This document shows, in pieces, positions 42,983 through 61,062 of a stretch of DNA of 64,000 nt. The stretch is taken from NCBI RefSeq assembly GCF_003704095.1, contig NW_020844806.1, positions 124,001-188,000 of the forward strand, read 5' to 3'. The first letter of the stretch is position 1, and each line of letters starts with the position of its first letter. The position numbers were made by a program, and so were the translations under genes. Source of the DNA: Pocillopora damicornis (lineage: Eukaryota). Below the pieces are notes generated by a model that had not been told where the DNA came from, ran no database searches, and saw only the letters and a list, made by a program, of their open reading frames with translations.

Positions 42983-43381
42983 TTAAACGAAGTCGCTGCT
43001 TTGAATCCAACGCAACTTTGAAGTCAGTGTCGCGCATTTCTGTTCATAATCTTTTTTCTCGCTGATAACCTTTTTCAATTCTCCTTTTACTTTAGATATC
43101 TCCAGCTGAAGATCTTTATTTTCCTGGATGATATCCTTCTCTTTTGATGAGTTTTTCTTTCGACACTTCAGAGCGTACTTGCGATTCTTTAAGATTCGCC
43201 TTCGCTTTCGAACCTTTTGGACCAGACCTTGAGGAAGTTTGCGAAGTCGCCTGTTTAAAGCTTGAATAGACATCGTTTCAAGTTTCTCGTCACTCAATTT
43301 TGCGATTAGAGAAAGATAACTGGAACTTCCATGCTTGGATTTCTTGGCTTTATTCTGCTCAGACGTTTCTCCACGAACCAT
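42983..43381 (-). CDS. Maf-type bZIP transcription factor, class A (copy 1), single-exon CDS; start uncertain
   Basis: Extended homology region (EHR) LSDEKLETMSIQALNRRLRKLP, basic region KRRRILKNRKYALKCRKK, leucine zipper. First in-frame ATG is 43381; the frame stays open to 43525 without an ATG. Confidence 0.85.
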   Translation of the reverse strand: MVRGETSEQNKAKKSKHGSSSYLSLIAKLSDEKLETMSIQALNRRLRKLPQGLVQKVRKRRRILKNRKYALKCRKKNSSKEKDIIQENKDLQLEISKVKGELKKVISEKKDYEQKCATLTSKLRWIQSSDFV

Positions 43382-43595
43382 AATCCTTATGCCCGAGTAA
43401 GCTTTAAAGAGATCTATCGCATTCAATCCACTCTCTTCGCCGGTTAAAATTTCCTTCTCAAAACCGCACCGCTCTTTGGTTGACCTACCTTCGTTTAAGG
43501 AGTAAATCGGGAAAAGTGGAACCCTTCAATGGCCGTCGTTAGTTTGCCTTTATGTTTATGTCGCATGAAGAATCAAAACAAGAAAGAATACTTGT

Positions 43596-43639
43596 CCAAT
43601 CAGATTGCAAGTTAATGATTAAGGGTAAGGGGATTCCCC
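43596..43639 (-). promoter_or_regulatory. kB site + CCAAT box upstream of Maf copy 1
   Basis: GGGGATTCCCC 43629-43639; CCAATCAG 43596. Confidence 0.7.
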
Positions 43640-44067
43640 GTTCGGTTTATTTTAGTAAAGTGGAAACATATCGTCATAGTAAACAATTTTCGTTCGTATC
43701 CCTCGTTAACCGACTGAAGGTAGTTTTATTCCATCGACAATGAAACGAATAGTTAGGTATCAATAGAATGATTACCCAGAGTCTTAAGAACAGTTTCAGT
43801 CGCCGAACTTTTCAAGAGCTGAACTTTATAGACCGACGCAAATAACTGTCTTGCCAGCCGCTAACGTATCAAATGTTGACCTCGGTTAGCCGTTCCAGAG
43901 TCGTTTCTGACTCAGTTTCAGGACTTCGAGTGGTTTCAGGATGAAGCTGTTATCCTGACGTATGCCTTAACATCAACACACGACGATTTTGGCGAGTAAA
44001 TCAAAGCTGCGTCGAAGCCGTTGCTCAGACAAAATTCACAGCTTAGCCATGCGTTAAATACGGTTAA

Positions 44068-44270
44068 CCCTTTAACTCCCAGACCAAATTTGTCATTCTC
44101 CTTACTGTCAACCATACAATTCTTATAATGTTGGTTCAAATAATTTGGCATTGGATCAACTTATTATCCCCAAATTGATAGTTTTCTTTATTCTCATCAC
44201 TTGTCTGGTTGATATTGTATCGATATTGTAAGGAGACATTTTTCTTTGTCACTCATGGGAGTTATACTGG
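44068..44270. mobile_element. MITE with TTAA target duplication (piggyBac-like)
   Basis: TTAA-CCCTTTAACTCCCA ... TGGGAGTTATACTGG-TTAA (degenerate right TIR). Confidence 0.75.
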
Positions 44271-45655
44271 TTAAGCCTTTAAAATCGCCCTCTTAATCTA
44301 TTTAAATGCCAAACTCTTCATGTACAGATTTAAAGGATTTTTTCCCAGCAATTTCGGCAAATGAACATTATGATCATACCTACGGTTTATTACAGCTTAA
44401 GCGAGATGCTATCGAACTTAAGCGGTAGCTCTGGCTCCAAATCCTTACTTTCTATGTTTTATCATCACTTAGAAACCTAATGAGGAAAATGGAACGTAAG
44501 TTAAAATATTGAGTCGAAAAATTCTCCGGATTCTGAAATATTCGTTATTCGGGATGTTTTTGTCTATTACTCAGTCATTAAAGATTCAAAGGTCTCTCCG
44601 TTTCCTCATTCCACTTCAAGGTCTCTTGTGATTCTAATATTACAACCTAAGTAGATTTACGACAACATATCAAAGACGTCAGTTACTGATAACATGCATG
44701 AACATACATTAAATTCAGGACTCTCTTTCTTATACATGCGGTATCAAGAAGTAGAAGAGTTTGGACGGAATGGGGGATGGGTGGATAGGCATTTCTATTC
44801 AAAACTTCCCTTCCCTCCCCTCACCTGCGCCTTACACATTGCCGAGAGTAATTTTACAGAATCCGAGATTTTGACGGATTAGAATCTGACAACCAAATGC
44901 CTATTTTAATATCGGCTCTCCAGGAGAGTCTCTTTCAGTTTCGATAGATGATGTAGTCATTTTCAGTTTCTGTATCCGTGTAAACATGTTATTGGCCGGA
45001 AGTATGGAGCGGGGCTCCTTCGCTCAAGCAGTAGTGTAGACTGGTTGCTTCAAAAACGCTAGAAACAAAAGAAAGCTATTAATTATGTTGTGAAATCGAT
45101 GGCGCGTGGAAATCAGACACTCGCGCGTTTGAAGTGGCATATATCACTACTGTGTTTAACTCTTATTTGACGGGAGTGAATCAACACAGTGAGAAAATAC
45201 TGTGAAATACTGAAAATACACAGACAATTGCATTATAAAGAAAGGTTTTTAAGAAGGAGAGAACGTGAGTTGCGGAGGAAAAGTTTCTTCAAGTTTATTT
45301 CTTTTTTTTAACTTTTTATAATTTCTTTCCGTTCTCTATATCTATAAAGTTGACTGTTTAATGGACCATAAGCTTTATTTTAACCGCTTGACTCTCAATA
45401 TGTACGCATCTTACATCTTTACAGAAATGACTTTATTTAATCTTCTGATCAATCATATCTTTTACTTCTTTAGCAGATGCAAATTTTCCAGCTTTCTCGA
45501 ATTCCCCCTTCTTAGAATAGTTAAGATGTCTCTGAGGCTATGCATATGTTCTGCGAACGATTAGTCATTAAATACATTTAATTTTGACAAAAAAAGGTGC
45601 CATATGCATATTACAAACAATACATCTTCGCAAAAGCTAAATTTTATCACCCAAA

Positions 45656-46237
45656 TCAGGCATCTTTTCTCGGGATTACCATGCTCTGTTTAAACAGCGT
45701 AAAGGATTGTTGCAGCTCCATATATTTTTTCTTGTAAGTCTCTTTCTCTTTCAAAGCTCTCAGTAATGACCATCTTCCATCTTCCACTTGTTTTCTCAGC
45801 GAAGTGTTCTCGTTGATAAGATCTTCCTGTTCTTGCTGTTTTCGAAGACGGCAAGTCAGGGCGTAACCCCGGTTTTTTAAGTTGCGTCTTCGTTTTCTTA
45901 TCTTCTTGGCCTCGTCCCAAGGAACATTTCGCAGAAACCTGTTCAATTCTTGCACCCGCATGTTCGCAATTTCTTCGTCGTTCAATATTTTAACATCTTT
46001 AGGAATCGATTCATCGTCCGATGACTCTGAGGTCGTGTTGTCATCGTCCTGGTGTACTTCTTGGCTTGTCTCTCCGTCGAAAAGATCTTGAATATCGCGA
46101 CTGTCATCTCTGTCGGCCATTTCGCTGCTCTTCTTCGCAGATGAAACGTTTCCAACAACCCACGAACAGCTGAAAGGAAGATCTGTTTCTTCACTGGCGA
46201 GAAACAAATCTGGAAAATCCATAGAATCTTCCTCCAT
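45656..46237 (-). CDS. Maf-type bZIP transcription factor, class B (copy 2), single-exon CDS, 193 aa
   Basis: Acidic N-terminus with DIQDLFDGET; EHR LNDEEIANMRVQELNRFLR; basic region KRRRNLKNRGYALTCRLRK; zipper; ACCATGG Kozak context. Confidence 0.93.
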   Translation of the reverse strand: MEEDSMDFPDLFLASEETDLPFSCSWVVGNVSSAKKSSEMADRDDSRDIQDLFDGETSQEVHQDDDNTTSESSDDESIPKDVKILNDEEIANMRVQELNRFLRNVPWDEAKKIRKRRRNLKNRGYALTCRLRKQQEQEDLINENTSLRKQVEDGRWSLLRALKEKETYKKKYMELQQSFTLFKQSMVIPRKDA

Positions 46238-46369
46238 GGTTAAACGTGAATCTGTAGGTATTAAGTTTGGCTGAAGCTGTAATATCTCAACAGTTTACAT
46301 AATCAAAAGAAAGATGGCGATGTTCCGGCAAAAAGCCGTAATGTAATACATACGAGTGAACTACTTAAG

Positions 46370-46464
46370 CCAATCAGATACCTACGATATTACATTTTGA
46401 TAAAGGGGAATCCCCTAACGCTATTCCAGGAAATTCTCGAATGGCTTTCCATGTATTCCGAGAA
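46370..46464 (-). promoter_or_regulatory. CCAAT + kB + HSE/GAS-like elements upstream of Maf copy 2
   Basis: CCAATCAG 46370; GGGGAATCCCC 46405-46415; TTCcaGGAaaTTCtcGAA 46424-46441; TTCCGAGAA 46456-46464. Confidence 0.7.
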
Positions 46465-49400
46465 TAAATCAAATTAATTAGCATACTGATTTTCCCTAAG
46501 TGTATGTTTCTTTCTACTTGACTTGTTCCGGAGGCATCGTTTCTTCATCATAAGGATGAAAGAAACGAATTTCTCACTAAAGTTTATTGCCTGCGACAGG
46601 AGCCCATCGCCCAGGAGCCTACGACTGTTACCGCACGAAGTCATCTTTTTAAAGGAAATGGTTGTCATGGTTTTAGCATACAATCCAAGGAATAACTTCT
46701 AATCAAGTGAAGTGAAGTGATTGGTTCAAGAAACGGGAAAGGGGCATTCAATTTCAAATCATGTATCGACTCGAGAGTGAGGCAGATAATTGCGCAGCAG
46801 CCCGACGACATTGAGACATTTTGTTTCATCATTCATCATTAACATTTCATTTATGTAAAAATAAAACAGGAAAAATTTAATAAAAAATATACGAGGTGTA
46901 GAAAATAGTTAAAAAACACAATTAAGATAGACTCACTTACTTTTTGGCAGTTGGATGGTAAGTTACTTCTTAGTATTTGTGGTGCATGCGCCGCCGCGGT
47001 CAAGTTTACTTAACCAAGTTGGTTTCCTGTTTTTAACGGCTGTTGCTTGGGATTAAATATCTCTATTTCGGTTCAAGCTGAGCTGGCCGGAAAACATGAG
47101 CCATGTTTGTCTCTATATTTGCCATGAGTAGTAGGAGGAGCTCAGTGAGACGAGATCGACCACAGCCAAAAAGTAAAAAGTACCAGCAATGGCCGGGTAT
47201 CAAATATAATCAATCGCAATGAACAAAACAATGAAACAACAATTGATGGTACCACGAACCTTTTTGAAAATTTTATTTCGAAACAGCCAGTTTTTGGCCA
47301 AAGGGGACAAAATTCAAGAGGACTCTTCAAGAAGCAACGTGATCACGATGCAATAGGCTACAAATACTTTACTAATGTACTAATGTCGTCAGTTACTTTT
47401 TGTTTTTCCCTTNNNNNNNNNNTTTCGCCATCACGTAAAGGTGCCATATCATTTTCAAAGTCAGGTTATCAATGTATCAAAATTGATTTGTTTTTATAAA
47501 AGACTGAGTGATCAGAATCACAGTGACCTTGATGTGTAGGTTATGATCACAGTTGAGGGATCTTTCCTTTCACTCCAAGTGACTGTTTTGACCTTAAACT
47601 CTGTAAACAGGAGAACACCAAGGAAGTGTTAGAAAATTGTAAGCCGAGTCAAGGATTGCAAATAAAATTTGAAAAGATAAAAAAAGACGCTGTTTCATAT
47701 CGCCGGCAACAGTCGAAAAGAAATAAACTCGTAATAACGTTTAGTGTAAAACTTGATAATAAAAATTCGATCGAGCATTGTACCAAATATCATGAAGTAA
47801 TGCCAGATGAAAGATTTTATAATTCAATGTCTGAAACAAAATCCTCAGCGCAGATCGAGACGAATTATGGTGTTTTCGTTTTAGCTGGTATCAGTATCGT
47901 TTACTCTCATTCTCTCTTTAGTCAAGTGGTAAGGTTCATGTATAATCCCGTGATCAGGAAGTGTGAATTTAATCAAGTTGTCGATGAGATATGATAAGTA
48001 ATCAGACCGTTACGTGTCTGATTTAGCATTTTATCAACAACGGTAAATGAACAGGAACGTACTGTAGGGAAGAAGTGTCAGCTAATAATATAATGTCATG
48101 GCTATTTTCCGCAAGTTTCATGGAGTTTAGCAGTTCTGCTTAGTTGTCTGATTTTACAAAATTATTGAGATACCACTAGTGCCCTAATTGGTCAAAGTCC
48201 TATCCTTTATTGCACCGGTTAGCCCATAGAAAATTTAAGTTTATATTGTGAAAGCAATAGGCGTACTAGGCCACGTGGGAAGTTGGGAAAACGCTTAAAA
48301 AGTTTGAACATCACCCGTCTCCGGCTCGTAATTAACAAATTCTTCTCGTGTTTTGTCAGCATGTAGCGTGAGTTATTACGCCAATAGAAAGTGAGGTCTA
48401 TATGTTTAATGACTAGACAATTACAACTTAAGTAGAAATAAGGTTGATAATGAATGCAAATTTTTTCAACGCACATTAATTTCTGGCTCGTGATTAATGA
48501 CGCATTACAAGTTTCCGGTGCGCTTGACAAGGCTGCCTTAATTACTTTTGAATAACAACATTCCTTGAATTCTAGGGGTGATGAACTCTTTCCAGATAAC
48601 GTTAGAAAGGGAAAAATATTTCCTTAAAGTAGCTATTCGTCAAGATAAACTAAAGTGAAACAATGGGTTTTTACTTTTGAAAAACAGTTCAAAACTTAGA
48701 TGTTCGGACTGATTATCGCGATAGATGGAAATAAACAATTGTCCTTGGAAGAAATTGAATTTACAAAAATAATAATTTCTTTTCTTCTTTCGCATCACTC
48801 TGGTAATTAATTATATCTCTATAGCTTATTATTTTTAACTTCTTTTTTGCTTTTGAGGCCGGGAATAATCAAGCAAAGGGTTTAACTTCGAGAAAAGTGG
48901 TAAAATGTGTTTTTCAGAATAAACTGGCGAGTTTGCGTGACACAGTTTGAATGTCGCTATGTTAACAATGGGTAACGGTGTCCATATTTATATATATATA
49001 TCCATAAGATTCATTTTAGATGAGGAAACGAGCTTTTAATATTTGTATAAAATCTAAACCTGAACTCGTCTTGTGACCCCATATTCCTTTCAGCTGTCAC
49101 TCGTGACTATCACGCCTCGAATGGTTTATGTTCCCTGATGTCACGCACGTCTCCTGCTTATCTCAATAACAAAATGGTCACATGTTTGTTTAACAAAGGC
49201 ATTTTATTTCGACCTCCACTTTAGGGAGCAAAATAGATTCGAATAAAAAAAATCCTGTTGATTGTGATGACTAAAGGTACGAAACGAGTTGACGTTCTGT
49301 ACGGGAAATTCACACAATTATGGACGAAATACACCGCGATGATCGCATGCAAAGATTCCACGAACCCAGTTCGAGTTCCTCGAAAGCCGCGTGCGATGAG

Positions 49401-50496
49401 GTTTAAGGAGTGGCTAACACGCAGTCTTTTTAAGCGAGGTTTTCCATTCATCCCTTTCTGCTGTAAAGGAATACTTACGGATTTTCAAAACACATTTAGT
49501 TTGAAATATTTGAAGTACTGTCAGCGTACTTGGTGCGAATAAAATGTATCAGTTCGTATCTATATTTTCGTTTCAACGACTCTCGACTCTCTCCATTTCA
49601 ATTCCACCAGACCCTATGATGAAATAGGGTGCAATTACGGATAATTATGTATTTTTTGCTATCAAAAGGCAATATACACATAAGCAATGAAAGAAACATG
49701 AATTAATACCGCTTCTTCAACTGCTAAGTGTAAAAAAATAAACACCCATACAATCTGAACTTAACATGTTATAATTTATTCCGCAGATAACACTTATCAA
49801 TTACATGTATTTCTCATCTTTTGGCGGAATCATTAATTACAATTTCTTTCGTAAAGTTAAAATAGACCACCACAGATTTAAATAGCTATTTTTGGTAGCA
49901 ACACGACAAAATTTCCGTGGAATTTGATAACATTTAACTGAATTGAATTTATCAACAACTGGACAACTGTAGCATGTCAGGGTTCCAAAATATAGTCAAT
50001 GTACACAATTCATACATCTAAATCAATCTGACTGGCTACTTATTCATCAAAAGTATCCAAAGACTTTACAATTTCTTTACCATAATACATTACTCAATAT
50101 GCTACTGAGCTTTGTGAACGCCACAACCACTCTAAACTGACAAATATTCAAAATATATTATATTCAGCGGTTTATGACCGATAGAATAAATGGAAAGCAA
50201 GGTTTCGTAAAAGATGAAGATCATTCAATTATATTAAAAACTTCTGAGAAACAGCTCTACCTTTGCCTCGATATACTTTAAGCGAGACTCGTTGCGCGAC
50301 GAAGGGTCTAGTAAAGTTCAATGTCACTAACATAACTAACGTTCGCTGCGTAAATCCTTGAGCGTGGGTTCTTGGACTTTGCGAAATTCTAATTACAGTC
50401 AGCTAAGTTACTTTCGTGATCATGTCATCCACAATATAAGTGCATGGAATGGAAATGTGTTCATGAATGTGGCCTCAAAGCCATTATTACCGATAA

Positions 50497-51057
50497 TCAC
50501 GAAGACAAGTGCCGCTTACGGCTCGAAAGCAATGCGTGGAGTTGTTCATATTTCTTCTTAAACATATCTCTGTCTCTCAAAGTATTGTAAAGGTTTTCCT
50601 TCGCTTCTTTCAACTCCAATTTCAATCGCTTGTTTTGCTGTTCGAGGCTTTCTTTCAGTGCCGTGCGCCTTTGTCGACAGAGTGTAGCATAGCCACGATT
50701 CTTCAGGCTTCTCCTCCGTTTTCTAATTTGCTTCGCCTCCGCTTTTGGCAAATTCTTCAACTGCTGGTTCAGAAGTCTTATAGAGATACTAATCAATTCG
50801 TCGTCGGTAAAGGGTTGGTTTTTGCCAACTTGCAAATCCAGTGGGCTCTGAGGCTCGCTACTGGCGATTGATTCGGTCTCGAAGTTGTCCAAATCTAGTC
50901 TTGTTTGCAACAAAACATTCTCGAAGTTATCTTCGCCAACCAGATCTCCCAGTCTATGGTTGTGTGACCAATCTGGACCGCAAACATCGCTCGAGAAATC
51001 CCTCTCCAAAATTTCGTCCATCGGGGACATTTCTGGGAAAAACTCGCTGTAATCCAT
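50497..51057 (-). CDS. Maf-type bZIP transcription factor, class C (copy 3), single-exon CDS, ~186 aa
   Basis: Likely start MDYSEFF (51057, AACATGG); acidic N-terminus; EHR FTDDELISISIRLLNQQLKNLP; basic region KRRRSLKNRGYATLCRQRR; zipper. Confidence 0.9.
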   Translation of the reverse strand: MDYSEFFPEMSPMDEILERDFSSDVCGPDWSHNHRLGDLVGEDNFENVLLQTRLDLDNFETESIASSEPQSPLDLQVGKNQPFTDDELISISIRLLNQQLKNLPKAEAKQIRKRRRSLKNRGYATLCRQRRTALKESLEQQNKRLKLELKEAKENLYNTLRDRDMFKKKYEQLHALLSSRKRHLSS

Positions 51058-51150
51058 GTTAGCAAAATGGGAATCTAACCAAAAATGAGACACATGATGG
51101 TACGATTTCTCATCAAAACTCAGCTCCATACGGGGTTGCTTGATTTTCGT

Positions 51151-51215
51151 CCAATCATATTGCGTGATTTGACTACATCTCACCTGCCTGTCAATCATGA
51201 AAACGGGGAATCCCC
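51151..51215 (-). promoter_or_regulatory. CCAAT + kB upstream of Maf copy 3
   Basis: CCAATCAT 51151; GGGGAATCCCCTAAC from 51205, the same 15-mer as at copy 2. Confidence 0.7.
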
Positions 51216-51393
51216 TAACAGTTTCTAAGCTTCTCAGCTGAAATGTCCAAGCACGTATTAGCTTTTGCAAGGTAAAATAGATCTTGGAACCTTTAAAAAT
51301 TGTTTCTTGTCCCCTGAAAACGTCCGAAAAACATTCCCTCACCGGAAAAAACAAAACTTTTGCGATTTTTTTTTCAGATCTAAAAAAAATATC

Positions 51394-53144
51394 ATTACGT
51401 CATATGTAATATTCTTACAATTCTTTGGTTTTCGTTCGGTTTTCAACCTGAATAAAATTTTCGTGGGCAATTAAGAATTTCTTTCTCGAAGAACAGTTCT
51501 AATGTTTCAGAAAACGTCGCGCAGAATGCGTGTTTCGTATTTCACTGGCCACAGCTGTTTGTTTATCGTACAGGTTCCACCTTAAAAGAGAAGGGAAAGT
51601 CCCTTGCCCTCTGAGGGTCAAAACAATGAAAAGCAGGTATGAAAAATATGCAGCGAACTCATCCTATCGAAATTGTGAAATCGGTAAACTGTAACATGTG
51701 AAGTATAAAGAAATTGATTTCTTCGCGTGGAAAATCTTTTAGGAAAAGGAGAAAATTGATTTTTACATCAAAGATCCCAGAGGGCGGTTGATCAGAGACT
51801 TTTAAGTGTCACGCATTCCAAAAAGGGAAAAACCCCTTCGGAAATGAAACAAAACCGCCGACTTAATGTCAGATGCAAATTTTCACTTTCGAAACTGAAA
51901 GTAAATTTCCCTGATTCCATTGCCCGTAATATTTATTTCTATTTTGGCGATTTGGCCTATAAACATTGTGCTTTTGATCATTTAGTTCAAAACCATATTT
52001 ATATTGCCAAATCTTAGCCACCATTTTCGCTCTATCGAGACTTTCATTTCAATTGCCTTGAGTAGGGAAATTTCCCTTAACCTCTGGGGGTCAACATAAT
52101 CTGAATTGCGACATGCACTGATGTTGCTATAAAATTTCGATCGTCACTGCTGTGAATTCTTATTTTTCAATTTTATTTAAATATATTTTAAAACATGGAG
52201 AGAAGGACCGGGGAAGGAGAGAAAGTAATTACTACTTTCTCCTTTCAATGTTCATCACTTTATATTAAAAACATGTCGGGCGAAGAAAAGATCGATTTAT
52301 TTAGGGGTCAATATTTATCTGCTGTCTTGTGTTTTCATCTTACTATGATCCAAAAATTATGCAGAAGTTGCATACTGTCTCGTTATGAAGGAAAGAACAG
52401 GATCTTAGCTGAAAAATAAAAATCTCCGTTACTCAGGCAGCAAAAAATAGACATAAAACTCTTGAATGATATATAAGTTTACAATCGCTATTACAGCTAT
52501 GAGTATTTTACATTACGACGTGACGTCTTTGGTCAGTATATTGGTATTAGATCGGCAAGGAAGAAACAAGATAAATCACTGTATTAAAAGTTGACTTCTG
52601 GGGATCAAAATCGACTCGTTAAGCGAATATTGGAAGCATGTTTAATGCTCAGCTAATCTATTATGCATGCGCAAAGAACGAAAACATTCAGAAAGGGAAA
52701 CTCCCTGCTGTTGTTTCCACAAGTAGAGGTCATTAATAGATCGAAATTAGTTTCGATTCTGGGACAAGCAGAGAGTTATTAAAACGGAGATGGGAAAAGA
52801 AAAATAATATATTGAAAAACGCAACATTTAGTTACTAGTGCAAGCCGGGTAAACACAAGTCAATCGAAGCTTCTCTTTCGTGAGGGTTTAGCCCTTCATC
52901 AGCGCCAAATACGATCATAGATGATAAACTCTATCGAGCTTTATTATTAGGTAGCATGAAGTGTATTGCATCACCAAAGAATCATAAAATATATTAGGAA
53001 AAAAGGCTCTCAGATGCGTTCGTGCTGCATTCATTTCGATCTCTCTTTGTAAAAAATAAATACATCTACCGACTGAAACAAAACCGAAAACAGACGCTAT
53101 CATTGGCCGAACTGATTAACTTGGATGAAAGCATGGGATTTCCC
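51394..53144. promoter_or_regulatory. Divergent control region with clustered kB, IRF and bZIP motifs
   Basis: GGAAAGTCCC 51594-51603 (reverse complement of GGGACTTTCC), GGGAAAAACCC 51825, TTTCACTTTCGAAACTGAAAGT 51881-51902, GGGAAATTTCCC 52065-52076, GGGAAACTCCC 52695-52705, ATTGCATCA 52965-52973, GGGATTTCCC 53135-53144, ATTACGTCAT 51394-51403. Confidence 0.65.
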
Positions 53145-53268
53145 TAGTATCGTTTGTGTTTGAGAGGTACTTTCCCGCTCTGGGCGTCTTTAATGAAACC
53201 AAACCTTTGCCCTCTGTTGCATTGCTTTTATACTGAATAGCATATAGTCTGTCGATCGCAAATTTGTC

Positions 53269-53853
53269 ATGGAGAAGAAGGAGTCTTACCTTGATTCATT
53301 TGGAGAGCGCGAATTTACTTCGAATAACACGCAGGGTCGACGAGCGCTTTCTGATGGTGTTTGTTATACACGTATGGTTGAAGGACTCCTGCAGATCACG
53401 CCAGAAACTATCGTGAGTCAAGGACGCCTTACAGAATCGGGTAATCTTCACCAACAATTAAATCACAATCGCTCTCTTTTGCTCAAAATAAATAAGAAGC
53501 TTTTCGACGACGAATACCTCGAAAGGACGTCGATTCAAGAGTTGAACAAGAAACTTCGTCGGCTGCCTGAAGGGCTGATTCGGAAATTCAGAAAAAGGAG
53601 ACGAATTCTCAAGAATCGTAAATATGCTCTAAAGTGCCGACAGAAAGGAATAGAGCGACAGAGCTACATCGCACATGAAAATGCAGCCCTTGAGCGAGAA
53701 ATTCTCCAAGCAAATATGGAATTGAGAAAAGTTATCCAGGAAAGGGACAAATATCGACAGAAATACGAACGATTGATAGGTGCTGTTTCTACTTTGAATA
53801 CATCAAGAGAGTTTTCTATGGTGGACTATGGCAGAATTGTAACGGAGCCTTGA
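53269..53853 (+). CDS. Maf-type bZIP transcription factor, class A (copy 4), single-exon CDS, 194 aa
   Basis: EHR FDDEYLERTSIQELNKKLRRLP; basic region KRRRILKNRKYALKCRQK, matching copy 1 except one residue; zipper. Confidence 0.92.
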   Translation: MEKKESYLDSFGEREFTSNNTQGRRALSDGVCYTRMVEGLLQITPETIVSQGRLTESGNLHQQLNHNRSLLLKINKKLFDDEYLERTSIQELNKKLRRLPEGLIRKFRKRRRILKNRKYALKCRQKGIERQSYIAHENAALEREILQANMELRKVIQERDKYRQKYERLIGAVSTLNTSREFSMVDYGRIVTEP

Positions 53854-54000
53854 CTGAAAAAGGAACTTAAAACTTGCCAAATAATAATTTCCATCGCTCT
53901 ACTCTTATATATCATTTGATTTTTGTTGTCAATTTCTGTTATCCTTGGAACACTCTGGCTCCGAGACTCTTTCAATGCTTTCAAAAGCGAAAGATATTAC

Positions 54001-54030
54001 GGGATTCCCCCCCTACGTCATCTTCATTGG
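54001..54030 (+). promoter_or_regulatory. kB + CRE-like + inverted CCAAT upstream of Maf copy 5
   Basis: GGGATTCCCC 54001-54010, TACGTCA, ATTGG 54026-54030. Confidence 0.65.
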
Positions 54031-54179
54031 GCAGAGCTCTAAATCATTTCTGTCATTATTTCAAAACTTGATTGACAGCCGGAGAAAGTCACGTGAGGCA
54101 ATATCGCAGCATCGTAACTTTCGTATCCACGGCCATGTGCTCTCGGTACGTTCAGTAATAGACTGACAGCGGACAAAAC

Positions 54180-54701
54180 ATGACCGATGAAGAACTTTAT
54201 GTCGATTTTCCCAAAATGGACGACACTTTTGATGCTGGGTTGGCTGAAGATAAACCCAGTTCTTATTGGGTCGGCTTTGAACCGCTCGTTGCCGAGGAAG
54301 AAAGCTCTCTAACGCAGACGCACCTATATTCTGTGCGCCCAGATTGTAACACAACCAGCTCTACGCCTAGTGAGCAGATCACCGACTTGGAAATCGCAAC
54401 ACTCCCTATACGCGAACTTAACAAACGCATGAAGAACCTTCCCCAAGCAGAGGTATTGCAAATCAGAAAACGCAGGAGAAGCTTGAGAAACCGCGATTAC
54501 GCGACCAACTGCCGGCGAAGGCGTACAGCGGTTAAAGAGAGCTTGCTGACAGAAAATCAGCGATTGCAAGATCAGCTACGGGCGGCAAATGAAGTCCTTT
54601 CCAGAGCAGTAAAAGAAAGAGACTCTTACAAAAGAAAATTTTCAGAACTACATAAGGCGTATGTCACCTTTAATAGACCTAATGTTGCAAGAAAATGGTA
54701 A
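54180..54701 (+). CDS. Maf-type bZIP transcription factor, class C (copy 5), single-exon CDS, 173 aa
   Basis: EHR ITDLEIATLPIRELNKRMKNLP; basic region KRRRSLRNRDYATNCRRRR; RRTAVKESL matches copy 3 RRTALKESL; zipper. Confidence 0.92.
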   Translation: MTDEELYVDFPKMDDTFDAGLAEDKPSSYWVGFEPLVAEEESSLTQTHLYSVRPDCNTTSSTPSEQITDLEIATLPIRELNKRMKNLPQAEVLQIRKRRRSLRNRDYATNCRRRRTAVKESLLTENQRLQDQLRAANEVLSRAVKERDSYKRKFSELHKAYVTFNRPNVARKW

Positions 54702-57043
54702 CTTTCATGCAATGGCATTCAGTATTGGACCGACATATTAATTTGAGTAGATTCGATCACCGGTCTCACAGCCACAGAAACAATAATAATACGTGTTACT
54801 GGAACTTTCCTTCAAAATTTTATCATGTGAAGTCGAATTAAGGTTAGTGTGCTCCAAATGTATACCAATTACACGAGCTATTTTGAGTAATATTCCGAAA
54901 GAATTTCATCATCAGTCATATTTCTGAGGCTTATAACGCCTGGTTATTTCAATTGGAAATTCCGTAAACTATAGCTTTAGAGACTCAGACACAACTCTCG
55001 TGTTTAGACATTATAGTTGCTTTTTGAATGGCTTTGTATTTCAGTCAGTGATAAAATTAACTTTACTTCAATTCACTTGATAAGCAAGAATAACAAGCTT
55101 ATTCCATTTGAATATTTATTTTTAGACCTCTTTATAACGCGAAAAGTCTAATGTAATTCGAACAATTGCGTATACATATTGTTTGTTGTTCAGAAGGGGG
55201 AAAGTTCTACCTACCTACTACTAACAATGATATCTGTTATAAAATCCAAAACTTGCTGTGGAAATTTCGTTATAAGGTCGGTAAAGATTGATTCGTCAGT
55301 TAGAGAAAATGTCTCACTGAAAGATCATTTAATACTGTTGCTGACTGAAAAAAAGTCATTTTGTGTATTATATGATTGTGTCCGTAGGCGATATTTCTAG
55401 ATAAACAGGAAGGAATAAATTTTTGAACCAAATGAATTTAGAGATATTCATGTAATTTGAAGAAACTATACTCTACTTCAATTTGATGTTGCATGCTGTT
55501 AACAAATTATGTACAAACCTGGTGTTAATAGCTTTAATAAAAAAAGTTTTTTAGGTAAATTTTGTATGCAATTGATGTCTTCAACACAACGGCTTTGATT
55601 TCAGCTTAACTCACCCTGCTTACTTTGGGTCAAAGCATTAGACAAAAGATTTTTAAAGTTTTCCTTGAGTTTACGTTTACTGATACTGCACAACTTCAAG
55701 GTGCATGATTTATCAAAGGGAAATTTCTTTGAACTAACAAATTTCAGGCAAGCCAGCAGCATGAACAGTTTGTGATGTCTCGACAAAAGTTACAGACTTA
55801 AGCAAACGTTTTCTTTGGTAACAATATGATACTGCTACTCTTTATACGCTTAGGCTAGTGACTTTTCTTCAATCAAACCAAGTGCAACCTAGAAATATTG
55901 TGACTTTACCGAGATGAACTGCTAATCAATTGTAAGTTAAAAACACTGCAGATTTTCATCCGGTTTTGTCGCGGCTGATAGGTCTTCAGCACCCATTTAG
56001 TACATGAAAAGAAGCATTGTGAGAGTAAAGTGTCTTCGCCAAGAACACAACAATAAAATTGAAACAACTCACAACTAGAACCCAGCGAGTTGATCATGGA
56101 ACCATCGTGTCTCTCAAATCGTTTTTATCAATTTAGAACCATTCGTTCATAGGGAAACTTTTCAAGCATAATTACGATTCTCTAAAGCTCGTTGACTCTT
56201 AACGATAACAGGGACGTCCCCTCTACAAGAGATATTCAATTTCGTTTGGGTTTAAGAGACTAGAAAGTGTTAAACATGAGAACTTGAGACGCACATGAAT
56301 TTCGATTCATTGAATAAAAAGAAAATTTGACTTCTTCGGTCGATAGTCGCTTAAATTGAAATGTTTTTCCGACAGTGGTCGAAATGGACGTCAAGATATC
56401 AAATCCTTTAGGAGAAAGTTTTAATGCTGGCAAAGAAAATTTTAAGTAGACCCAACTATAAAAAATCAACGAGAGGGGAAAAAACCAAAGATCACAATAC
56501 TTCTTAAAATAGGCTTTCATAACATATCCACAAACACATGAGTGCTAGTTCGACTTTACAACAAAAAAGGATACGTTGTGAACATCTCTCAGTACCACAT
56601 GAAGACCTCGAGGAACCAAGAATATGAACAAACCGCACAACAGTGTCACATCCATGTAGCAAATTGTGTAAAACGGAATATACTCCTTTTGTGTGATTAT
56701 TTGTTTGATTGCTCGCAATGTTTTGTTTTGTTTTGCGATTTCCATGCCTACTAAGTTCAGTTCATCTCCGCCTTTGCATACGTTTATGCGGCTCTTTGCG
56801 TCAACAAATAGAATTTCATTATCCATGAATAGGTTCATTTCTAGACAGCAGTAAAAGAAGTAGAAGAAAAAGGAAGGATAGCCATTAAATCTGATTAATT
56901 TCCCAAATGAAAAAGAAAAGAAAAGAAACTTGGTTGGTTATAAGAGTCTCGTTAACCCTCATGTAAGACACGACTTGTAGATAGTTTGCGAGACTGATGT
57001 AATTTTTTCCATCACCTCGTTGCTGTGTATATACTCAGAAAGC

Positions 57044-57161
57044 TTCAAGAAAATTCTCAGAACAGGACCGCGCAAGGGAATTCCCCCCGAAATGAAAACG
57101 AAAGTTTTCCTGTTTCAGAAACTTAATAAGCTATTCAGCTGCGACATTGGGGGGAAAACCC
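57044..57161 (+). promoter_or_regulatory. HSE/GAS + kB + ISRE + CCAAT + second kB upstream of Maf copy 6
   Basis: TTCaaGAAaaTTC 57044-57056; TTCTCAGAA 57054-57062; GGGAATTCCC 57076-57085; GAAAACGAAAGT 57094-57105; ATTGG 57146; GGGAAAACCC 57152-57161. Confidence 0.7.
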
Positions 57162-57236
57162 TCAGAGACTTTCACTTAGTCATTGTGATTCGCTTCTGAA
57201 AAGGGAGAAATTGTTCATCGACGCTGCATTTGTCAT

Positions 57237-57788
57237 ATGATGGAGGAAGATTTTGATGCCCTGTTCGGTGTGTACTCCACCGATGCCATGAAACACGTTT
57301 TTGAAAACCTATGGACGGAAGAGAGTCTTCTATTTGAGGAAAACAATTCTACCTCCAACACAGATGGCGACATCCAAGATCTTTTCGACGGTGAAACAAG
57401 AAATGAAGAAAATTACTCATCTTCTGAATCTGAAACTGAGAGCTTGAATCCTTCGACGATAAGCGACGAACAAATTCAAAATCTCCGCGTGCAAGATCTC
57501 AACAAGCTTCTTCGGGACCTCCCGCGGGACGAGGCAGCAAAAATAAAGAAGCGAAGACGCAACTTGAAGAATCGAAACTATGCTTTGAATTGTCGCATTC
57601 GTAAACAGCAAAAATACGAAGATCTGCTAAACGAGAACTTCTCATTGAAAGAGCAACTGGAGAGTGAGAGAAGTCAGCTAAGAAATGTCTGGACAGAGAA
57701 AGAGGCGTTCAAGAAGAAATATCAGCATTTGCAGAAGTCTTTTGCTGTCTACATGCAAAGCAAGATATCTACCGAGCTGCCGGCATGA
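57237..57788 (+). CDS. Maf-type bZIP transcription factor, class B (copy 6), single-exon CDS, 183 aa
   Basis: MMEED start and DIQDLFDGET shared with copy 2; EHR ISDEQIQNLRVQDLNKLLRDLP; basic region KRRRNLKNRNYALNCRIRK; zipper. Confidence 0.93.
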   Translation: MMEEDFDALFGVYSTDAMKHVFENLWTEESLLFEENNSTSNTDGDIQDLFDGETRNEENYSSSESETESLNPSTISDEQIQNLRVQDLNKLLRDLPRDEAAKIKKRRRNLKNRNYALNCRIRKQQKYEDLLNENFSLKEQLESERSQLRNVWTEKEAFKKKYQHLQKSFAVYMQSKISTELPA

Positions 57789-59111: not shown

Positions 59112-61062
59112 ATGCGATGCACTGACTTTATTTCATTGGTGTTGTCCGTGTCGTATGTCACCTGTGGAGGTATTTGGTGTACGTTATAATGAAATTGTTA
59201 CCTATTGTTACTCTGCCTTAGCAATTAGCAAGCCCCAAACTCCGATGTAAAAAAAAAAGTTGTTTGCGTCTTAGCACCATTTTGTCGATGATTTGTTGCA
59301 AGGGTTACAGCCTTGCCTACTCAGTCAGTTGACATGTTAACATATTATTCATCTTCTCTAGTGAGGCGAAATTAACGCTTGACTGCATATGAGATCTTTT
59401 AAACAAAGCGTTGACAAATGTCAATGATATTGAAGTGCGTGTGTCGCGCCTCCGCTTGATTTTTCAGTAAAAAAACGTGACGATGAAAGTGCTCTGAAGG
59501 TGGGTAGAATTAGATCTGCAGATTCGTTCCTTATCTCCGGACTGAACCCAAAATACCAGCTTTAAGTCCGTACAACGCATTAATTAAGTGTGTACTGAAC
59601 TGAAGCCGAAAAATATGTTACTACATCGAACATTTTAACACTGAAATCAGCAAAATAGAAGGGCGGAGGGAGGTAGCTTGCGAGAAAAGTGTGATAGAAA
59701 ACGAGGGAGACTAAATACATCGAAGAAAGGACCCTTGTCACTGTTGTTTAAAAAAAAACCTTGCCAATTTCTCTCGCTTGCTCATTCGCTCACCTCCAGT
59801 AACCAAGAGACTGATAAATTGATACCCTGGACTCCTTAAAAACAAACATTAAACTTGACTTAAAAATTTTGTCGTCTCTTACTGAATGCATTCCACTCAA
59901 TTGTCTTAGGTTATGAATACGTAGGTTGCTATAAAGATTCGGACCCCAGAGATCTCCCACAAAGAGTTCACGGCCGTGAAGTGACAGTAAAATCGTGCGC
60001 CAAGAGCTGCAAGGACCTGTTTTATAGATTCGCTGGCCTTCAGTTTTCATATCTCTGCTTCTGTGGTAACAAGCGAGGGCGGTACGGTCTGCTGCCGGAG
60101 TGGAAGTGTTCGAGTGAATGTACCAATAAAGAAGACAAGCATTGTGGAGGATACTGGAGTAACTCCATTTACAAAACAGGTGTAGTTGATATCAGAGCTC
60201 GCCGATAATTTCTTTGAAAGGTTATAACAAAATTGGCTCTCGAGTCAATCGTCGCATTTTGCTATAATCACTCCGCGTAAGGGGGTTATGTCACTAAAGC
60301 ATCAGAATTTGCATTCTCCACCGAAATTGCAACTGCTCTGATGATTGCCTGAGTTACTATACCAAGACAATTATCGCGGACTCAATGAACATCGTCGAAT
60401 AATTCCCATTCCAATACGTCTACAACTTCTGTTTAATTTGACTTTAGGTTATGATCCACCGGCTGGTGTCAAGATAACTCCACTGCTAACAAAAGCCTTA
60501 GCTGATCTCAAACCGCATGTAAATGCTACCAACCACACGAAGGTGAGCATGACAAACATGATGATGAAGAATTTCAAGCGGGTAGGGTTGTTCAAGAAAC
60601 AATTCATAAAAACAGAACGTGAAAGTAAATGTTTGGATTAGCTCCGCAGCTTTGCTATCATTTCACATTTCCCCTTTTTCATCTTTTGCTTTCTTGAAAT
60701 TGTTCTACACACAAGCTTGATTTTGGAAATAATCATTGATTCGAGGAAACGAGAAAACAATATTGCGCAGGGCAAGATAAACTCAGAACCGTAATGAGGA
60801 AATTTTAACCCGAGAAAGTAAGGTCTCTTTTTTTTGTCTTGATTGAATGTAACCCTCAATTGAAAAATTGTGCTTAATTTTATGAACTACATGCAAAAGA
60901 ACGAAAGCAGCGGCGAAACTAGTTCTGGCCCTTTTAATATAAAGAATAAAATATGAAAAAATGGGAGATCTCCCTGCAGTCTTAACGATGATATATGATC
61001 ATTATATGGGTTTTCATCCTAATTTACAGGAACACAAGAAGGCTAAAAGTACCAACCACTGA
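59112..61062 (+). CDS. Small secreted WSC-domain protein (~151 aa, 4 exons)
   Basis: Exons 59112-59169 (signal-like MRCTDFISLVLSVSYVTCG, GCCATG context), 59910-60179 (YVGCYKD..TVKSCAKSC..FAGLQFSYLCFCG..CSSEC..CGGYWSNSIY), 60448-60542, 61030-61062. Phases are consistent; the last exon is least certain. Confidence 0.8.

Follow-up and report, generated by a model that had tools for sequence, protein, structure and literature searches.

The window analysed here is a 64,000-nucleotide stretch of the genome of the coral Pocillopora damicornis (contig NW_020844806.1, positions 124,001 to 188,000), which contains a cluster of six Maf-type bZIP genes. Phylogenetic trees place these genes in three classes, class A (copies 1 and 4), class B (copies 2 and 6), and class C (copies 3 and 5), as an initial annotation of the same DNA had proposed. 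We report here that the class-B promoters share a module composed of one or two TTC-N3-GAA palindromes of the gamma-interferon activation site (GAS) type, a kB-type site, and a CCAAT box, which is likely bound by a STAT5/6-like protein together with NF-kB; the STAT input appears to be absent from classes A and C. Judged by comparison among corals, the module is real, conserved, and restricted to class B; it belongs to a known kind of promoter, here in a setting that is new.

The initial annotation had noticed a heat-shock/STAT-like element just upstream of the kB site in both class-B genes, and had proposed that class B integrates HSF1 and/or STAT with NF-kB. Both of the strings that it quoted are present exactly, once each, at 46424-46449 (-) for copy 2 and at 57038-57062 (+) for copy 6, and their TTCN3GAA sites do end 8 bp and 13 bp, respectively, from the kB match. 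It was also right about classes A and C: within 80 bp upstream of the kB site, 0/4 of their promoters in the window have a GAS or a heat-shock element (HSE) match of at least 8/9, and a search widened to ~1 kb yields a single 8/9 HSE match, inside the coding sequence (CDS) of copy 4. By chance, a GAS arises in 2.5% of 20,000 shuffles of each 80-mer. Three things were missing from that annotation: the other GAS of copy 2, the decayed distal one of copy 6 (Table 1), and a third class-B gene of this genome (G000), L006, which also carries a GAS and lies in tandem with another Maf gene, the class-A member L008, on contig C134.

To compare promoters across corals, a metagenome scan with an alignment of 36 class-B proteins gave 32 loci with Mafs of all classes; the protein from one of these loci matches an Orbicella faveolata entry at 100% identity. 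From 64 promoter entries, three were dropped because they had too little upstream DNA and 20 because they were near-duplicates (at least 90% alike), which left 26 class-B promoters, 14 class-A/C promoters, and one other. A TTCN3GAA within 80 bp upstream of the kB site is found in 24/26 of these non-redundant class-B promoters versus 0/14 class-A/C promoters, and two such sites within the same 80 bp in 20/26 versus 0/14. When whole paralog groups are counted instead, GAS is present in 3/3 class-B groups versus 0/5 A/C groups (p=0.018). The two class-B promoters that miss are L017, in which both GAS have decayed, and L036, in which the pair lies ~200 bp further up, a shift that apparently follows a local duplication. 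Thus the ortholog check splits the claim that the element is conserved: it holds for GAS and, as discussed below, fails for the HSE.

The form of these sites is also constrained. The gap between the half-sites is N3 in 24/26 class-B promoters, N2 in 2/26, and N4 in 1/26, and 42 of the 44 class-B GAS sites read TTCYNRGAA, the sequence preferred by STAT5-type proteins. In 18 of the 20 pairs the spacer is 9-13 bp long, and the proximal GAS of the pairs lies 8-32 bp from the kB site. In the alignment of the copy-2 group (B2), identity is 0.91 in the GAS halves, 0.60 in the spacer, and 0.50 upstream; over the three class-B groups, with the duplicated promoter L036 left out, the halves score 0.91, 1.0, and 0.88 versus 0.60, 0.77, and 0.54 for the spacers. 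In other words, the sites are conserved across corals despite the drift of their spacers, and the putative GAS sites combine a palindromic TTC-N3-GAA core with positional conservation above that of their flanks. The CCAAT-box-like motif of copy 2, presumably an NF-Y site, lies 30 bp downstream of its kB site, and an ATTGG is found 21-39 bp past the kB site in 17/17 B2-group promoters.

At copy 2, the distal GAS (TTCTCGGAA) is a 9-mer found identically in L019 and in the L006-group promoters, and the proximal GAS reads TTCCTGGAA. The corresponding sites of copy 6 can be read from its orthologs: an intact TTCTTGGAA stands at the place of the decayed distal GAS in 2/2 non-redundant orthologs, whereas the proximal GAS (TTCTCAGAA) is intact in L014 and decayed in L016. 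L014 shows the arrangement GAS, 13 bp, GAS. The GAAA-N-GAAA motif downstream of the copy-6 kB site, which has a similar counterpart in both orthologs, is presumably an IRF element resembling an interferon-stimulated response element. The RNA contigs end downstream of the GAS/kB module at both class-B genes of the window in 3/3 contig runs, although contigs cannot fix a start. The kB site thus appears to lie within a few helical turns of the GAS and upstream of the transcript. DNA contigs of 3/4 runs also cover the copy-2 promoter, with one substitution in the gap between GAS and kB site; since they are otherwise near-identical and may come from the source of the same DNA, they were not counted as support.

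Table 1. Promoter elements and Maf genes of the window (positions are those of the 64,000-nucleotide stretch)
Feature	Positions	Strand	Evidence or remark
Copy 2, class B (group B2), single-exon Maf-type bZIP CDS, 193 aa	45656..46237	-	ORF; PF03131 73.4 bits; trees; stranded RNA reads and contigs
CCAAT-box-like motif of copy 2	46370..46374	-	sequence
kB-type site of copy 2	46405..46415	-	match; kept in B2 orthologs
Proximal GAS of copy 2	46424..46432	-	match; position conserved
Four-unit HSE-like match of copy 2, one mismatch, overlapping the proximal GAS	46424..46441	-	none in orthologs
Decayed GAS-like unit TAC-N3-GAA within the 23-bp spacer of copy 2	46447..46455	-	sequence
Distal GAS of copy 2	46456..46464	-	match; lies beyond the string quoted in the initial annotation
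Decayed distal GAS (TAC-N3-GAA) of copy 6	57032..57040	+	alignments
Perfect three-unit HSE of copy 6, within the 13-bp spacer, last TTC common to the proximal GAS	57044..57056	+	absent from both orthologs
Proximal GAS of copy 6	57054..57062	+	intact in L014, decayed in L016
kB-type site of copy 6	57076..57085	+	match; looser GGG..CCC variant in orthologs
GAAA-N-GAAA motif of copy 6	57094..57105	+	similar motif in both orthologs
Copy 6, class B (group B6), single-exon Maf-type bZIP CDS, 183 aa	57237..57788	+	ORF; PF03131; tree; RNA
Copy 1, class A: ORF 42983-43525, kB site 43629-43639	42983..43639	-	no GAS, no HSE; comparison gene
Copy 3, class C: CDS, proximal kB 51205-51215, distal kB 51594-51603	50497..51603	-	no GAS/HSE; comparison gene
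Copy 4, class A: kB 53135-53144, ORF 53248-53853	53135..53853	+	no GAS, no HSE; comparison gene
Copy 5, class C: kB 54001-54010, ORF 54162-54701	54001..54701	+	no GAS, no HSE; comparison gene

A candidate reader of the GAS is encoded by the same genome. The STAT gene on G000 contig C1014 was matched across residues 1-857 of the 857-aa protein P0143, in which N-, coiled-coil, DNA-binding, linker, and SH2 domains are found; this organism has a STAT with DNA-binding, linker, and SH2 domains, and the initial annotation is supported in its STAT and NF-kB half. Exon-by-exon family searches of G000 with STAT_int and STAT_bind found nothing, and it was the STAT_linker search that revealed the gene. 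Among solved structures it is closest to STAT5B/5A (E 4.5e-105), with STAT6 and STAT1 following, and by this relationship the coral protein is STAT5/6-like. Its N-domain (STAT_int) scores 32.8 bits versus a cut-off of 26 and aligns weakly to the STAT1 N-domain (29 bits), with the residues ML aligned to the FL pair of STAT1. This FL pair has a role in N-domain pairing. The STAT gene itself has four GAS matches in the ~730 bp that precede its first coding exon (G000 C1014 72197-72719), hinting at a possible STAT autoregulation. NF-kB expression in P. damicornis has been described in the available text of 10.1101/640177.

These observations suggest how the module may work. Activated STAT dimers would bind the GAS pair, perhaps as a tetramer, while NF-kB would bind the adjacent kB site and a CCAAT factor the box downstream. 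With NF-kB on the kB site, which has a match upstream of each of the six Maf genes in the window, NF-kB input would be common to all Maf classes, with STAT added in class B. Binding by STAT is likely on the present comparison, whereas synergy with NF-kB and an immune or wound-type trigger are inferred; the pairing of two STAT dimers through their N-domains on sites 9-13 bp apart is the step of which we are least sure.

A similar pairing of sites was sought across the genome. GAS located 6-28 bp from a kB site gives 67 matches at 57 distinct places, compared with 18 for the reversed pattern and 30 at a distance of 106-128 bp. An IRF open reading frame (ORF), L054 (G000 C580), has such a GAS+kB pair ~130-170 bp ahead of its first Met, as do, with tandem GAS and an overlapping kB site, two CARD_2 ORFs, L073 and L074 (C1291), which we take to be RIG-I-like genes. 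The neighbours were scanned in 150 of 184 ORFs from 25 loci and in 91 ORFs from 14 regions. Several paralog families have repeated GAS+kB pairs (G000 C1273, C2469, C4382/C139/C1224, and C3893), four of the pairs being near MIB_HERC2/ApeC exons, six among EGF-repeat ORFs, and the rest unassigned. One pattern match, L065 (G000 C1232), falls within a long ORF whose domains are stonustoxin-like, fn3, and GTPase, and is likely due to chance. A strict tandem-GAS pattern (86 versus 43 control matches) was not used as support, since simple repeats are among the 50 places listed and no class-B promoter of this genome fits it.

Several points weigh against the proposed STAT and NF-kB module. The row-level Fisher p-values of the promoter comparison (5e-9 and 3e-6) are inflated, because the promoter rows are not independent: in the tree, 15/26 class-B rows belong to one expanded clade. 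For 9/64 of the initial entries the kB anchor was chosen by eye. An intact YNR pair at 9-13 bp is found in none of the class-B promoters of this genome, the copy-2 spacer being 23 bp long, the distal site of copy 6 decayed, and the proximal site of L006 non-YNR; because the pair is partly decayed here, N-domain pairing is the least secure step. Genome-wide, the excess of 57 versus 30 places (p=0.0025) shrinks to 39 versus 29 (p=0.14) once paralog families are collapsed, and most annotated GAS-kB neighbours are not obviously immune, most ORFs having no family or an unrelated one. Knocking down STAT in Nematostella brought no reduction of cGAMP-induced genes, according to the available part of PMC8713801, and in Montipora four consecutively numbered Maf genes rose alike (fold change 1.96-2.39) after five weeks of heat in the available text of PMC8590396, where classes are not resolved.

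The role of the HSE is the main point on which other explanations diverge. The element consists of alternating nGAAn units in 5-bp phase and, as the initial annotation had described, it is perfect over three units at copy 6, the only such case in the 64 kb, and matches 11/12 over four units at copy 2; copy 6 also reaches 11/12 over four. The HSF1 version of that annotation's proposal starts from these two matches and takes the HSE as the conserved class-B feature, with class B as the heat-responsive Maf class of corals. This is hardly credible now: 0/23 non-Pocillopora class-B promoters have a perfect HSE, a four-unit HSE, or TTCnnGAA in the 80 bp, only one of the 23 has an 8/9 match, and the class-A orthologs L037 and L038 have, respectively, a perfect HSE beside the kB site and an 8/9 match. 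The HSE is therefore neither conserved in class B nor confined to it, and the HSF1 version is refuted at the sequence level for the sampled corals. The L037/L038 elements lie ~25-35 bp upstream of the kB site and have decayed in their G000 class-A ortholog L008; two further motifs, presumably IRF-like and ETS-like, are conserved downstream in the class-A orthologs of L008. Because HSE and GAS motifs share letters, HSE calls near GAS need such ortholog checks. A narrower proposal, compatible with the STAT and NF-kB module, is that an in-phase HSE arose in the spacers of copies 2 and 6 in the Pocillopora lineage, so that these genes also answer directly to heat, through an HSF input overlaid on the module. 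We regard this as possible, although doubtful. The four-unit 11/12 HSE occurs in 2/3 Pocillopora class-B promoters versus 0/23 others (p=0.009); shuffles that leave the GAS in place produce it at rates of 0.27% for copy 2 and 0.065% for copy 6, so that it is unlikely to be a chance match in this genome. HSF DNA-binding domains are present (four matches), and the copy-6 site falls within the range seen at small-HSP loci, where perfect HSEs occur at 1/7, matches of at least 8/9 at 4/7, and a kB site at 0/7. On the other hand, the pattern was noticed post hoc, L006 has no HSE, and HSE followed by kB is not enriched genome-wide (two matches versus four in the control, in one orientation). Moreover, the comparison includes no other pocilloporid promoter, with none from Stylophora, Seriatopora, or Madracis. 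The two HSEs may also be a single event. Copy-6-group promoters give the best match to the copy-2 cassette that runs from its decayed GAS-like unit up to the proximal GAS: against the three of them, the 23 bases in front of this GAS reach scores of 27, 20, and 18, versus 2-13 against the copy-2 group, which suggests that copies 2 and 6 share one cassette. This could come from an old promoter conversion or from retained ancestry, or else from the local duplication of short units within the copy-2 spacer, of the kind seen in the 18-bp spacer of L030. Alignment places the Pocillopora HSE in the variable spacer between the two sites of L014; the HSE-like match is likely a later overlay in this lineage, possibly gained once and shared by copies 2 and 6.

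Two other explanations concern the GAS themselves. A factor other than STAT could bind the TTCN3GAA pair, for instance an ETS-type factor or a zinc-finger repressor resembling BCL6. Three of the 44 sites equal TTCCTAGAA, the BCL6 consensus, many contain GGAA, and the silent STAT knockdown in the anemone immune assay points the same way. However, 7/44 sites have no GGAA on either strand, and the palindromic N3 gap, the YNR middles, and the constrained pairing distance fit a STAT5/6-type protein, which is the type of the coral STAT; we consider another factor improbable. It is more difficult still to regard the shared sites as inherited promoter remnants with no present function. One site has indeed decayed in several promoters, including all three of this genome, but each of the three class-B groups, at a protein identity of only ~50-60%, has retained the sites, while spacers and flanks diverge, and we judge this explanation very unlikely. 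For the STAT and NF-kB module, a broader scenario can also be imagined, in which class-B Mafs, IRF, and RIG-I-like genes of corals follow a promoter logic of STAT tetramers with NF-kB that works without interferon and is older than the Maf paralog split, and the Pocillopora HSE was then written into the spacer and shared by promoter conversion, wiring heat into an immune switch. Taken as a whole, this scenario is speculative and rather unlikely.

The six genes themselves are single-exon ORFs spanning 42983-57788, three on each strand. All six score 57-73 bits for the Maf bZIP domain PF03131 versus a cut-off of 22 and are Maf-type bZIP genes by this measure. Named proteins related to them come from Pocillopora (98-100% identity), Oculina, Desmophyllum, and Orbicella; the identity to Pocillopora proteins marks the source as a Pocillopora coral, and the initial annotation had already guessed at a coral. 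The copy-6 protein shares 98% identity with a protein of Pocillopora verrucosa that bears the name MafK-like. Such vertebrate names fit coral genes loosely, because the large and small Maf groups arose after cnidarians had split off, according to the available text of PMC4736632. A scan of prokaryote genomes found no Maf relative among 75 pattern matches. In one stranded raw-read RNA run all six genes are transcribed, on the expected strands, and RNA contigs of three other runs cover each CDS at least partly, with no intron-like joint listed; the runs carry no treatment labels, and read depth cannot rank the genes.

Some further features of the cluster should be mentioned. Copies 4 and 5 are spanned by single RNA contigs in 3/3 contig runs (window 53200-55544; one contig begins within the copy-4 CDS), so that the copy-5 kB site lies within transcribed sequence, and read-through or overlapping transcripts are possible. 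The copy-3 RNA contigs run beyond the proximal kB site, to 51389-51746 (window 51205-51746), and the distal kB site is also kept in the ortholog L014, which together suggest a second, upstream copy-3 promoter. Gene order is partly conserved in L014, L021, L032, and L037, as A-C-B and B-A runs, but in L014 and L021 the copy-3 ortholog has the opposite orientation and sits between copies 5 and 6. The copy-2 group is tandemly expanded in other corals (L018, L020, L022, and L030), with 2-4 or more copies per contig, and has mostly retained the GAS pair. A short, high-copy MITE-like repeat (a MITE being a miniature inverted-repeat transposable element) at 44064-44264 attracts thousands of partial reads. 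The cluster is flanked by a gene with a C-terminal fn3_4 domain at 26666-31838 (-), which is presumably ATF7IP-like, and on its other side by a WSC-domain exon at 59864-60208 (+).

Our literature search found no paper on these class-B Maf promoters, and the combination of coral, STAT, and GAS-element promoter gave none, most subscription journals being outside its coverage. The direct targets of STAT in cnidarians, and its trigger, are a question to which the class-B promoters speak, the anemone knockdown having had no effect in one assay. The GAS pair beside the kB site offers a short, conserved, class-specific probe or reporter with built-in negative controls, since classes A and C have the kB site and no GAS. 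If the Pocillopora HSE works, it would be a concrete example, in a reef builder, of heat and immune signalling being rewired in a lineage-specific way.

Among known systems, the mammalian IRF1 promoter is similar: there too a transcription-factor gene has neighbouring GAS and kB sites in its proximal promoter, and STAT1 acts with NF-kB (available text of PMC8264192). The likeness extends to the coral IRF ORF L054, with its own GAS+kB pair upstream. Unlike IRF1, the coral GAS is usually doubled and of the STAT5 type, and its target would be a class of Maf paralogs; unlike the interferon setting of IRF1, anemones are described as having no interferons in the available part of PMC8713801. A second, possible likeness is to STAT5 tetramer sites: the coral pairs consist of two TTCN3GAA-type sites, mostly 9-13 bp apart and one of them often weak, and the coral STAT is a STAT5/6-like protein with an N-domain. 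The accessible part of PMC13234138 gives a spacing of 2-17 bp for STAT5 tetramer sites formed through N-domains, within which the 9-13 bp of corals falls. The differences are that in this genome the pairs have been respaced or have decayed in part, and that the alignment of the coral N-domain to that of STAT1 is weak.

The human Hsp70 and Hsp90beta promoters are comparable to the Pocillopora overlay, as STAT and HSF1 occupy a short common region there, with sites for both in one short stretch (available text of PMC2989708). In corals, by contrast, the STAT/HSF overlap is found in two Pocillopora paralogs only, is not conserved, and lies at a non-chaperone gene. Finally, heat-upregulated clusters of Maf-like genes have been reported in corals, including those of Montipora mentioned above. 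As far as the available texts go, Maf-like genes of Stylophora rise at 48 h together with immune genes (10.64898/2026.07.18.739195), and Maf genes mark immune cells in Nematostella (PMC13319465). These reports concern Maf or Maf-like genes, as the present case does, and differ from it in resolving, as far as available, neither class nor promoter, the level at which the class-B module is seen here.

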